Shown here in pieces: positions 3,000 to 7,083 of a stretch of 64,000 nt of DNA. This DNA is from an uncultured Clostridia bacterium (GTDB lineage: Bacteria > Bacillota > Clostridia > Christensenellales > CAAEEZ01): NCBI GenBank assembly GCA_934365195.1, contig CAKRNA010000003.1, positions 183,804-247,803 of the forward strand, written 5' to 3'. Below the pieces are notes generated by a model. It searched no databases, was not told where the DNA came from, and saw only the letters and a list, made by a program, of their open reading frames with translations. A program made the translations under genes and the position numbers. Within the stretch, counting starts at the first letter, position 1, and every line of letters begins with the position of its first letter.

Positions 3000-4004
3000 C
3001 TAGCCTCTTACTACCTCTAAAATCTTCTTTACGTCCTTTACTACTTCCTCGAATTGCTCCGGTTTTAGCGATTGTGCGCCGTCGCATAATGCGTGTTGCG
3101 GGTCGTTGTGAACCTCTATTAGCAAGCCGTCGCAACCACAAGCAGCCGAAGCCCTTGCCATAGGTCTTACCAGCCTGTTTATGCCCGATGCGTGCGACGG
3201 ATCGACAATTACGGGTAGGTGCGTTTTCTCTTTAAGTAGCGGAACGGCAGATAGGTCTAAGGTGTTTCTCGTGTACGGCTCGAAAGTACGGATACCCCTT
3301 TCGCAAAGTATTACCCTCTCGTTGCCCTCGCTCATAATGTACTCGGCGCTCATAAGCCACTCTTCCATAGTATTTGCTAGCCCTCTTTTTAGTAAAACAG
3401 GCTTGTCCAGTTTGCCTAATTCTTTAAGTAGTTCGAAGTTTTGCATATTCCTTGCGCCGACTTGAATTAAATCAACGTCCTCAAAGTCCTTTATAAAGTG
3501 GTCGCTCATAATCTCTGACACGATAGGTAGCCCCGTCACTTCTCTTGCTTTTTTAAGTAAGTCCAGCCCCTCTACTCCAAGCCCTTGGAACGCATACGGC
3601 GAAGTTCTAGGCTTAAACGCACCGCCTCTTAGCATCGTTGCGCCCGCTTTTTTCACAGCCTCGGCAATACTGATTACTTGCTTTTCACTCTCCACGCTGC
3701 AAGGTCCTGCTATAATTTGGAAATTGTTTCCGCCAAACTTCACGCCGCTTACGTCGATAATGCTATCCTCAGGGTGAAATTTGCGGTTTGCATTCTTAAA
3801 AGGCTCTTGAATACGGTTTACGCTGTCTACGATATCAAGCGAACGTATTAGGTCGATATCCACTTTGCTGGTATCTCCTATTAGTCCAAGAATGGTACTT
3901 TCCACGCCGTTGGATTCGTGAACGTCAAGTCCTAGCCCTTTTATCCAACTAATCAGGCTTTCGGTTTGCTCTTTGTCGTGTGGCGACTTTAAGGTAATAA
4001 TCAT
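3000..4004 (-). CDS. aroF: 3-deoxy-7-phosphoheptulonate (DAHP) synthase, type I-beta with an N-terminal regulatory domain
   Basis: 334 aa with GPCSVES, KPRTSPY and DPSHA motifs of the KDO8P/DAHP synthase I-beta family. First gene of the operon. Confidence 0.9.
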   Translation of the reverse strand: MIITLKSPHDKEQTESLISWIKGLGLDVHESNGVESTILGLIGDTSKVDIDLIRSLDIVDSVNRIQEPFKNANRKFHPEDSIIDVSGVKFGGNNFQIIAGPCSVESEKQVISIAEAVKKAGATMLRGGAFKPRTSPYAFQGLGVEGLDLLKKAREVTGLPIVSEIMSDHFIKDFEDVDLIQVGARNMQNFELLKELGKLDKPVLLKRGLANTMEEWLMSAEYIMSEGNERVILCERGIRTFEPYTRNTLDLSAVPLLKEKTHLPVIVDPSHASGINRLVRPMARASAACGCDGLLIEVHNDPQHALCDGAQSLKPEQFEEVVKDVKKILEVVRG

Positions 4005-4018
4005 TTTGTTTCTCCTAT

Positions 4019-4049
4019 AAAAAAACCGCCCTTAGTTTGTAAAGGCGGT
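4019..4049 (-). terminator. intrinsic terminator (attenuator) in the aro operon leader
   Basis: Minus strand reads ACCGCCTTT-ACAAACT-AAGGGCGGT, a 9 bp stem including one G-U pair, followed by six T. It ends about 13 nt before the aroF SD (GGAGA). Confidence 0.75.
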
Positions 4050-4078
4050 AAAATTCATCAATATATTTTCAATTTATT

Positions 4079-4159
4079 TTAACCGCATACCAAACAAGAC
4101 TTACCGTAATAGTAAGCCGAAAAATAGAAATAAACGTTGTTTGATAATACTTTTTTCAT
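4079..4159 (-). CDS. aromatic-amino-acid leader peptide, 26 aa: MKKVLSNNVYFYFSAYYYGKSCLVCG
   Basis: My own translation. SD AAAGAGG lies 8 nt upstream of the ATG. There are 5 Tyr and 2 Phe within 9 residues. It sits between a consensus promoter and the terminator, and its stop codon lies inside the antiterminator arm. Confidence 0.7.
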   Translation of the reverse strand: MKKVLSNNVYFYFSAYYYGKSCLVCG

Positions 4160-4185
4160 AAAATAAACCTCTTTGCTACATTGTT

Positions 4186-4214
4186 ATTCTATTACCACAG
4201 GCAAAAACTGTCAA
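4186..4214 (-). promoter_or_regulatory. sigma-A type promoter of the aro operon
   Basis: Minus strand TTGACA, 17 nt spacer, TAGAAT. Confidence 0.65.
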
Positions 4215-4241: not shown

Positions 4242-5060
4242 CTATTTTTTTAGGTTTTCCAGTAAGAAAGGTATCGCCTTTTCAAAAGAAACGCCGTACC
4301 AATGCTCGCTACTCGTCAGTTTTATGCTGTCAAGCACGAACTTAATCGCCACTTTCACGGCTTTTTCAATGCTTTCGCCGTTAAACAAACAGCCCGCAAG
4401 CGACGAAGCGAAAACGTCGCCCGTTCCGTGATAGGACTTTGGTATTCTTTCGCTAAATTCGTACCTAATCGCCCCGTCGTAGTAGCAAACGCCCATCTTG
4501 TCCTCTTCAAAACTTACGCCCGTTAGCACCACGTTTTTAGGGCAAATTTCCCTTAGTTTTTGAATAAGCCCCTCGATATATTCCTTGCTTTGACTATTAG
4601 AGAATTTCTCCCCCGTCAAAAGACAAGCCTCGGTAATATTAGGCACGATTACGTCGGCACGGCTAAGTAGTTTTTTGTTGCTTTCAGGGTAAGTTTGATT
4701 AAACCCGCCGTACAAACTACCGTCATCGCCCATAACCGGATCAACGATAACAAGCCCGCCTTCGTTAAGCCTATCGTCTATTAGCCTAATCACTTGGTCA
4801 ATTTGCTTTTCGCTGCCAAGATACCCCGTGTAAATTCCGTCGAACTTAATATCGTTTTTTTGCCAAAATTCTAGTATTTTGTCAAACTCATTAGACAGGT
4901 CTAGGTAGGAATAGCCGTTAAACCCGGTGGTGTGATTGCTAAGCACCGACGTTGGCAAAATCGCCGTTTCCAACCCCATACTAGATAGAACGGGAAGCGC
5001 AACGGTAATGGAGCATTGCCCGACGCAAGATATATCCTGAACGGTAAGTATCCGTTTCAC
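4242..5060 (-). CDS. pdxK: pyridoxal/pyridoxine/pyridoxamine kinase
   Basis: 272 aa of the ribokinase-like PdxK family (ILTVQDISCVGQCS..., GTGDVFAS near the C-terminus). Confidence 0.8.
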   Translation of the reverse strand: MKRILTVQDISCVGQCSITVALPVLSSMGLETAILPTSVLSNHTTGFNGYSYLDLSNEFDKILEFWQKNDIKFDGIYTGYLGSEKQIDQVIRLIDDRLNEGGLVIVDPVMGDDGSLYGGFNQTYPESNKKLLSRADVIVPNITEACLLTGEKFSNSQSKEYIEGLIQKLREICPKNVVLTGVSFEEDKMGVCYYDGAIRYEFSERIPKSYHGTGDVFASSLAGCLFNGESIEKAVKVAIKFVLDSIKLTSSEHWYGVSFEKAIPFLLENLKK

Positions 5061-5978: not shown

Positions 5979-6002
5979 AAAAAAAGCAGCCATCAGGCTG
6001 CT
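5979..6002 (-). terminator. intrinsic terminator of gap
   Basis: AGCAGCC-TGAT-GGCTGCT followed by six T on the minus strand, 17 nt after the gap stop. Confidence 0.8.
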
Positions 6003-6018
6003 TTTAGTTTTGTTTATA

Positions 6019-7035
6019 TTACTTTAATTCAGCAAAGTATTTGATAGTTCTTACCATTTGAGTGGTGTAAGAATTCTCGTTGTCGTACCAAGAAACAACT
6101 TGTACTTGGGTGGTTTTGTCGTCGATAGGGCAAACCATAGTTTGAGTAGCGTCAAACAATGAACCATATCTCATTCCGATGATATCAGAAGAAACGATTT
6201 CCTCCTCGTTGTAGCCGTAAGACTCGTTAGCGCTTGCTTTCATAAACTCGTTGATTTGCTCTTTGGTAACTACGCCATCAACAACAGCAACCAAAATGGT
6301 GGTAGAACCGGTTGGGGTAGGTACTCTTTGTGCAGAACCGATAAGTTTGCCGTTTAACTCCGGAATAACAAGACCGATTGCCTTAGCAGCGCCGGTGCTG
6401 TTTGGAACGATGTTCAAAGCAGCCGCTCTAGAACGACGAAGGTCGCCTTTTCTTTGTGGTCCGTCAAGAGTCATTTGGTCACCGGTGTAAGAGTGAATGG
6501 TAGACATAATACCGCTCTTGATAGGAACTAACTTGTTCAAAGCGTCAGCCATAGGAGCAAGACAGTTGGTGGTACAAGAAGCAGCAGAAATGATTTGGTC
6601 GGTTGGTTTCAAGGTGTCGTGGTTTACGTTGTAAACGATAGTAGGAAGGTCCTTTCCTGCAGGAGCAGAAATAACAACTTTCTTAGCGCCAGCGGTGATG
6701 TGAGCCATAGATTTCTCTTTTGAGCAGTAGAAACCGGTACACTCCAAAACAACGTCAACACCGATTTCGCCCCAAGGTAACTCTGCAGCGTTTGCTTTTG
6801 CGTAGATTTTGATTTCTTTTCCGTCAACGATGATAGAATCTTCGGTAGCAGAAACTTTATCAGCCAAAGCATATTTTCCTTGAGAAGAATCGTACTTCAA
6901 TAAGTGAGCCAACATTTTAGGGCTGGTAAGGTCGTTGATAGCAACAACTTCATAACCCTCTGCACCAAACATTTGTCTAAATGCAAGACGTCCGATACGG
7001 CCGAAACCGTTGATAGCTACTTTTACATTTGCCAT
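6019..7035 (-). CDS. gap: glyceraldehyde-3-phosphate dehydrogenase
   Basis: [11 protein letters not shown] and SCTTNC motifs. I place the start at MANVKV (7035) because GGAGGA lies 10 nt upstream; the track ORF extends to 7053. Confidence 0.95.
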
Positions 7036-7083
7036 AATATTATATTCCTCCAAAATGTATTCATTTTTATATTTACTGACAAT

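Follow-up and report, generated by a model that had tools for sequence, protein, structure and literature searches.

In the 64-kb stretch of contig CAKRNA010000003.1 from an uncultured Clostridia bacterium analyzed here (henceforth the window, by which we mean its full 64,000 nucleotides), the operon aroF-tyrA-aroB-aroA on the minus strand is preceded by a short leader with a small open reading frame (ORF) rich in tyrosine and phenylalanine codons. We consider it very probable that this leader is a four-region ribosome-mediated transcription attenuator, which would control the operon by sensing charged tRNA-Tyr and tRNA-Phe. The mechanism itself is classical and not new: the regulator is of a well-known kind, and the element adds a case of it from a lineage that has received little study.

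The leader promoter combines the -35 hexamer TTGACA (4209-4214, minus strand, as are all positions of the leader and operon) with the -10 hexamer TAGAAT (4186-4191) across a spacer of 17 nucleotides (nt); it matches the consensus at 11 of 12 positions and is the joint best within the first 8 kb, and the position of its -10 box would place the transcription start near 4179. The Shine-Dalgarno (SD) sequence AAAGAGG (4168-4174), with its GAGG 8 nt 5' of the ATG at 4159, leads an ORF of 26 codons plus TAA (4079-4159) whose product is MKKVLSNNVYFYFSAYYYGKSCLVCG. Within this peptide the stretch YFYFSAYYY packs 5 Tyr and 2 Phe into 9 residues, with the aromatic codons falling into two clusters: UAU UUC UAU UUU (Tyr-Phe-Tyr-Phe, codons 10-13, 4121-4132) and UAC UAU UAC (Tyr16-18, 4106-4114). 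The stop codon UAA (4081-4079) is embedded in GCGGTTAAAAT, in RNA form GCGGUUAAAAU (4086-4076). Further downstream, the core arms of an intrinsic terminator, ACCGCCTTT (4049-4041) and AAGGGCGGT (4033-4025), which read ACCGCCUUU/AAGGGCGGU as RNA, stand before aroF, the first gene after the leader, with its ATG at 4004. An earlier reading of this DNA made from its letters alone (below, the sequence-only reading) had claimed the promoter TTGACA-17-TAGAAT, the SD sequence and the 26-codon ORF with its aromatic run, a stop codon lying within 4076-4086, a 9-bp terminator followed by six T (4024-4019), and the gene order aroF-tyrA-aroB-aroA. All of these are present: the promoter at 4214-4186, the SD sequence and ORF at 4174-4168 and 4159-4079, and the terminator before aroF with a tenth pair added by RNAfold; Pfam agrees with the gene order.

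Folding predictions divide the leader into four regions that could pair in alternative ways. Region 1, UAUCAAACAA (4137-4146), forms the 5' strand of the 1:2 or anti-antiterminator helix. Region 2, UUGUUUGGUAUGCGGUUAAAAU (4076-4097), contains the leader stop codon and is predicted to pair with region 1 via 4097-4088 and with region 3 via 4095-4076. Region 3, AUUUUACCGCCUUUACAAAC (4035-4054), is the 3' strand of the antiterminator and comprises the terminator 5' arm (4049-4040) and loop (4039-4035), whereas region 4 (4019-4034) joins the terminator 3' arm UAAGGGCGGU (4034-4025) to a U-tract of seven U (4025-4019). In the 1:2 structure, UAUCAAACAA (4146-4137) pairs with UUGUUUGGUA (4097-4088) around a hairpin (4118-4098) bearing Tyr16-18, with codons 10-13 in an internal loop; the fold of 4146-4086 has -14.6 kcal/mol and z = -4.6 against dinucleotide shuffles, the control used for all three structures. 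The 2:3 antiterminator pairs GUUUG..GCGGU(U)AAAAU (4095-4076) with AUUUUACCGC..CAAAC (4054-4035), and the fold of 4100-4034 yields -14.4 kcal/mol (z = -3.6). The 3:4 terminator, 4049-4040 with 4034-4025, is given -14.0 kcal/mol by RNAfold (z = -4.4). The alternatives are thus predicted to exclude one another and to differ little in energy, all lying near -14 kcal/mol, which answers the comparison of antiterminator and terminator energies that the sequence-only reading had called for. When region 2 is left free together with the complete terminator (4100-4019), the structure of minimum free energy is an extended antiterminator at -18.3 kcal/mol. The alternative pairing previously put forward, that of GCGGTTAAAAT (4086-4076) with ATTTTACCGC (4054-4045) over 10 bp with one bulged U, is indeed present as the core of 2:3; as a description of the antiterminator it falls short, the helix spanning 4095-4076 : 4054-4035 and reaching the terminator loop. 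The 1:2 structure (4146-4137 / 4097-4088 and its inner hairpin) was missing from that account.

The transcription start, the translation of the leader, the stalling of the ribosome and the regulatory outcome are what we infer in the following scheme. Transcription would proceed from the strong promoter and a ribosome would start on the 26-codon leader. With ample Tyr-tRNA and Phe-tRNA, the ribosome would reach the UAA inside region 2, and region 2 would be masked by the terminating ribosome or re-paired with region 1 once the ribosome is released. Region 3 would then be free to pair with region 4, and RNA polymerase would halt at the U-tract of the resulting terminator, 15 nt 5' of the aroF ATG. 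If charged Tyr or Phe tRNA were scarce, the ribosome would stall at codons 10-13 (YFYF) or 16-18 (YYY), with a footprint covering region 1 and the inner hairpin and stopping just short of region 2. The free region 2 would pair with region 3, that is, with the terminator 5' arm and loop; hence no terminator would form and the operon would be transcribed. The mixed run of Tyr and Phe codons implies an OR logic, whereby lack of either charged tRNA would open the common pathway.

The recurrence of this design was assessed on 80 genome and 80 metagenome loci (L001-L160) encoding the closest relatives of the window's DAHP synthase, at 60-74% identity, with counts taken over 78 genome and 71 metagenome loci (149 in all). 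They come from uncultured Clostridia with the labels Christensenella(ceae), Oscillospiraceae, Faecousia, Ruminococcus, Acutalibacteraceae and Clostridium butyricum, and in addition from Phascolarctobacterium. The closest metagenome relative is 71% identical at most, and this set was hence used for replication. To be scored as a leader, an ORF had to have 8-60 codons, hold 5 or more Phe, Tyr or Trp within 9 residues and end 50-250 nt 5' of aroF (40-260 nt in the metagenome set). Such an aromatic leader is found at 65 of the 78 genome and 50 of the 71 metagenome loci; the resulting 115/149 compares with 6/149 among reverse complements (3/78 and 3/71) and with 2.6/78 among shuffles. The small ORF and its aromatic run, the conservation of which the sequence-only reading had named as a check, are therefore widely retained.

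These controls bear directly on an alternative that we hold to be barely probable, namely that the hairpin is a constitutive terminator or insulator of the pdxK/thiD-like gene (pyridoxal/HMP kinase-like; 4242-5060, minus) upstream of the leader, with aroF depending on read-through or a different start and the small ORF arising by chance in AT-rich sequence. The hairpin does lie downstream of this same-strand gene, and AT-rich DNA easily gives rise to Phe and Tyr codons, such that about 20% of controls reach 4/9 aromatic residues. However, at the stricter density of at least 6/9, the ORF persists in 59 of 78 real regions from the genome set, as against 0.45/78 for shuffled and 0/78 for reverse-complemented ones. 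Further, the near-consensus promoter stands between the pdxK/thiD-like gene and the leader; the upstream neighbours vary by locus, whereas leader and terminator remain next to aroF or to whichever gene opens the operon; and if termination 15 nt 5' of these essential biosynthetic genes were constitutive, they would be silenced, since no promoter follows the hairpin.

The association with the first gene is illustrated by at least nine loci without an aroF-adjacent leader, where aroF comes second in the operon and the aromatic ORF is found ahead of the first gene. At L055, L105 and L106 the leader is ahead of pheA (prephenate dehydratase, PDT+ACT), about 1.1 kb 5' of aroF, and at the Phascolarctobacterium-like L046 it is ahead of a second, tandem DAHP synthase paralogue recognized by Pfam, about 1.27 kb 5' of aroF. 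Five further loci (L100, L103, L109, L111 and L115) have an L046-like layout, with the leader likewise about 1.27 kb 5' of aroF and an untyped first ORF of 347-354 amino acids (aa) ending 73-111 nt 5' of aroF. Hence, the element follows the operon start. At the 19 related loci with no visible leader we found neither a T-box nor any other Rfam element.

Across 98 distinct leaders, Phe makes up 18% and Tyr 15% of the residues, while Trp is rare; the leaders of the Ruminococcus type are long and Phe-rich, with one Trp. Both synonymous codons are in use for each amino acid (TAT 166 and TAC 200; TTT 371 and TTC 84), which speaks for the amino acid, and against an RNA motif, as the target of selection. 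The promoter recurs as well, with a perfect TTGACA and a 17-nt spacer ahead of most related leaders. In the closest relatives of the window (L001, L003, L004, L006, L007, L008 and L011), the stretch of about 75 nt 5' of each leader ORF holds a perfect TTGACA, followed after 17-18 nt by a -10 box that lies only 6-7 nt 5' of the leader ATG, and an SD sequence is absent. Thus, the leader peptide of the closest relatives is probably translated from a leaderless mRNA, whereas the window and most Oscillospiraceae possess an SD sequence and a 5' untranslated region (UTR) of 20-45 nt.

The leaders also differ at their 3' ends, with the ORF of the window being about 7 codons longer than in most close relatives (compare L004 and L007). 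A conserved TTTGGTGTGCGG, the homologue of region 2, lies past the stop codon in those relatives, whereas the window translates it as ...CLVCG* and L091 as ...FGMRG*. It is very unlikely in our estimation that the small ORF encodes a functional hydrophobic micropeptide, acting in the membrane, in trans or by nascent-chain arrest, such that the peptide sequence rather than the charged tRNA would matter. Trans-acting leader peptides are known, for example peTrpL of Sinorhizobium (PMC7298713), and C-terminal motifs such as ...SDLCCK or ...FFTRKK are common to some sub-families. Against this, the leaders range from 16 to 44 aa, and no conservation is seen outside the aromatic run across lineages; the C-terminal motifs coincide with region 2 nucleotides (UGCUGCA), so that RNA pairing accounts for them; and the constant association of the ORF is with aro operons and a terminator.

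The RNA elements of the proposed attenuator are likewise retained, albeit in diverging sequence. A strong hairpin with a U-tract occurs 20-60 nt 3' of nearly every leader, and its stem sequence varies between lineages. When transcripts ending before the terminator 3' arm were folded, their mean z against shuffles was -1.96, with p ≤ 0.05 in 58% of 57 loci, and 76% of the terminator 5'-arm nucleotides were paired upstream as compared to 55% in shuffles. An alignment of 11 subgroup sequences by MAFFT left the helices out of register between rows; hence, alignment-free tests comparing cognate with non-cognate pairs were chosen. A first version that took the terminator 5' arm alone as the target gave only a weak signal (mean z = -0.8). 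Since the pairing in relatives was seen to reach the terminator loop, the test was repeated with the loop included: region 2 then pairs with its own terminator 5' arm and loop at a mean of -15.3 kcal/mol and with the terminators of other loci at -11.1 (90 distinct pairs, t = -15.6, p = 3e-27). The cognate duplex is in the best decile at 62% of loci, and the window has a rank of 0.04. Control segments of equal length, taken from the same locus and richer in GC, reach only -11.2 kcal/mol (p = 8e-15); for the window, the corresponding values are -11.8 versus -7.6.

The covariation can be followed among the nearest relatives, where the GUUUG/CAAAC of the window has its counterpart in UUUGG/CCAAA in L003, L004 and L007 and in UUGCG/CGCAA in L001; L006 and L008 have GCGU with ACGU or ACGC. 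The helix conservation that the sequence-only reading had asked for is thus borne out, in that terminators follow the leader almost everywhere and the antiterminator arm covaries with its own terminator. The 1:2 pairing is enriched in the family too, though with a weaker signal (z = -1.2, p = 2e-9); at 60 of 90 loci, the partner of region 2 overlaps the aromatic codons.

The placement of codons and helices in the related loci is in keeping with control by a translating ribosome. Region 2 starts at a median of 19 nt (interquartile range 17-24) past the first base of the last aromatic codon, so that a ribosome stalled at this codon would end just short of it. Region 2 also starts at a median of 2 nt past the first base of the stop codon and would hence lie within the footprint of a terminating ribosome. 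In the window, the distance from the first base of Tyr18 to the start of region 2 is about 12 nt, and region 2 includes the stop codon. Region 2 falls inside the ORF end in the window and in L091, whereas in most close relatives the stop codon is about 10 nt 5' of region 2; both placements satisfy the attenuation model. The composition of the leader appears to follow the gene content too: Y/(Y+F) is 0.50 in leaders of operons with tyrA and 0.29 where tyrA is lacking from the fetched flank, with a p of 1.5e-9 that is not phylogeny-corrected. The window leader, with 5 Tyr to 2 Phe (0.71) and tyrA as the second gene of the operon, fits this trend. Two claims of the sequence-only reading, the geometry of ribosome-mediated attenuation and the match of the Tyr bias to tyrA, find a parallel here, in that stop and stall spacing are kept across the related loci and the Tyr share tracks tyrA.

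The terminator/antiterminator alternatives alone do not name the sensor, and one may envisage a real terminator switch worked by an RNA-binding protein or a small ligand, in the style of TRAP, PyrR or a riboswitch, which binds a U/A-rich tract of UAY and UUY triplets, leaving the ORF incidental. The aromatic run does double as a periodic U/A-rich RNA tract, for instance UUUUACUUUUAC in relatives, and frame +1 of the window tract likewise encodes 6 aromatic residues. We nevertheless take this explanation to be very unlikely. There is no (G/U)AG array, T-box core or Rfam riboswitch, even at E ≤ 10. Moreover, the tract is always in an open frame that has an ATG and an SD sequence or begins at a leaderless 5' AUG directly after the promoter; its aromatic codons begin at a median position of 10, and its stop codon is placed relative to region 2. 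Tyr/Phe substitutions and synonymous codons vary freely within it, such ORFs are absent from the reverse strand and shuffles, and the Tyr share of the leader tracks the presence of tyrA.

Several points weigh against the proposed Tyr/Phe attenuator. Its case in this organism rests on sequence comparison and predicted folds, and the comparative statistics were computed without phylogenetic correction. The nearest AroF is only 74% identical, so that no base-by-base compensatory series is available for the helices of the window. Equilibrium folds of the 175-nt whole leader with ribosome masks all retain the terminator, in part because the U-tract pairs spuriously with the A-rich 5' end. If the attenuator operates, its decision must therefore be a kinetic, co-transcriptional one, as in the classical systems. 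Further, a ribosome stalled at Tyr16-18 would hide part of the 5' end of region 2, leaving a weaker antiterminator of -10.5 kcal/mol, and the shuffle test for the window, when started past a ribosome stalled at Tyr18, gives only p = 0.095.

The genes under the putative attenuator are aroF (3000-4004), a type I-beta DAHP synthase whose N-terminal regulatory domain is ferredoxin-like (Pfam DAHP_synth_1 and FXD; PF00793, 4.9e-78, and PF18152, 5.8e-20); tyrA (2138-2998), a prephenate dehydrogenase, and aroB (1135-2145), a 3-dehydroquinate synthase, both assigned by Pfam; and aroA (1-1135), an EPSP synthase (PF00275, 1.7e-72) that continues past the window edge. A scan of the 64-kb window for other amino-acid-rich leader ORFs with terminators returned this leader as the sole intergenic one. 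Elsewhere in the window, a perfectly symmetric terminator-like hairpin, AAAAGCAGCC-loop-GGCTGCTTTT (5982-6005), is scored on both strands and lies just downstream of a GAPDH gene (6019-7053, minus).

Among many gut Clostridia, the Tyr/Phe leader seems to prevail as the design for aro operons. No description of Tyr/Phe leaders in Clostridia turned up in a literature search limited to open-access text, beyond which an earlier mention in comparative genomics is possible. To a more sweeping proposition we give even weight: that a large, uncatalogued class of dual Tyr/Phe attenuators, and not T-boxes, predominates for the common aromatic operon in gut and rumen Clostridia (Christensenellales-like forms, Oscillospiraceae, Ruminococcus, Clostridium butyricum) and some Negativicutes; that it switches between SD-led and leaderless forms by lineage; that its Tyr:Phe ratio is tuned to tyrA or pheA; and that it explains the aroF terminator of Clostridioides difficile. 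Premature termination has been mapped in the aroF 5' UTR of the latter, with no assigned riboregulator (PMC8237595), and the leader described here offers a candidate mechanism for this unexplained Term-seq signal. More generally, our results suggest that a ribosome-sensing Tyr/Phe leader controls the shikimate/tyrosine operon in many uncultured gut and rumen Clostridia. They provide a simple sequence rule by which aro operons can be annotated together with their small ORFs, usually overlooked or labelled hypothetical. They also make one attenuator design available in about 100 independent natural variants, some led by an SD sequence and others leaderless, and with a stop codon that falls within region 2 or ahead of it; these are usable for the study of attenuator evolution. 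Compact Tyr/Phe-responsive parts for the engineering of anaerobes are furnished as well.

T-box riboswitches and TRAP are the textbook controls of aromatic genes in Bacillota. Like Tyr/Phe T-boxes and TRAP, the window leader would choose between terminator and antiterminator in the 5' leader of aromatic genes and answer to tRNA charging or amino acid level; unlike in those systems, the proposed sensor is the translating ribosome. As candidates for the leader both were set aside: T-box (RF00230) gives no match at E ≤ 10, with no TGGNACC core and no specifier loop, and of the 9-11 (G/U)AG triplets spaced by 2-3 nt that TRAP requires, there are 5 scattered ones with no run of at least 4. A scan of the leader and of the whole 64-kb window on both strands returned no Rfam family at the gathering score, with riboswitch, T-box, ribosomal-protein leader, tRNA and rRNA classes all below it throughout. 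The sub-threshold matches include one to freshwater-2 RNA at 4002-4077 (22 bits versus 49.9), which is probably a generic resemblance reflecting only the order of terminator, U-tract, AGGAGAAA ribosome-binding site (RBS) and AUG. The sequence-only reading had deemed a leader-peptide attenuator unusual in Firmicutes; this stands relative to the textbook T-box and TRAP systems, but such leaders are common among the relatives of the window, and a similar aroF upstream ORF (uORF) candidate has been published (PMC8632094).

The best sub-threshold Rfam match is Phe_leader (RF01859), the family of the gamma-proteobacterial pheL attenuator, at 4146-4019 with 23.5 bits versus a gathering score of 55 and E = 0.18; it denotes resemblance and not membership. 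The resemblance to E. coli pheL-pheA and to trpL, hisL and leuL lies in a short ORF close to the promoter, in which codons for the pathway product occur in a run, in the 1:2, 2:3 and 3:4 alternatives with a terminator just before the first structural gene, and in a stop codon placed such that a terminating ribosome would mask region 2. In contrast to pheL-pheA, the window leader is predicted to sense both Tyr, the dominant one, and Phe; its targets would be the common shikimate pathway and tyrA instead of pheA, and its host is a Clostridia-like member of the Bacillota. It probably arose independently.

Within the Firmicutes, leader peptides have been reported for His, upstream of hisS/hisZ in bacilli (PMC2965389), and for Leu, upstream of leuA in Streptococcus and Lactococcus (PMC5314783), with both studies stressing their rarity. 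The window leader would share with them a ribosome-based attenuation in a phylum dominated by T-boxes, each instance appearing to be lineage-specific, but it concerns other amino acids and other operons and has no sequence relationship to them. Among published candidates in Bacillota, the uORFC-13-1 motif comes closest; it is found solely upstream of aroF, in Acholeplasma and unassigned environmental sequences, with 24 representatives (Brewer et al. 2021, PMC8632094). Its parts are -35 and -10 boxes, an RBS, a start codon, U runs that code for Phe and, directly 3' of these, an intrinsic terminator; its authors put it forward as a Phe-dependent attenuator whose uORF contains 'at least one' Phe, and do not mention Tyr (PMC8632094). 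Compared by description only, the window fits this account, with an aroF-adjacent promoter, RBS, uORF with Phe codons and terminator; the family is absent among the Rfam 15 matches to the window. The uORFC-13-1 account has no analysis of an antiterminator or of ribosome geometry, both of which are available for the window element.

By analogy of function, aroR-aroF of Corynebacterium glutamicum is the closest counterpart of the window leader. Attenuators of that organism are reportedly on leaderless transcripts (Neshat et al. 2014), as is probable for the closest relatives of the window. The attenuator of aroR-aroF was first noted in PMC4046766; its leader has an F-Y-F run, acts by ribosome stalling and was shown to respond to Phe limitation (PMC4046766; PMC11802643, citing Neshat et al. 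2014), and Tyr reportedly had no effect. Both systems place a leader of mixed Phe and Tyr codons ahead of a DAHP synthase gene; relative to its actinobacterial counterpart, with its 3 aromatic codons, the window leader has 7, is dominated by Tyr in an operon with tyrA, and is equipped with an SD sequence.

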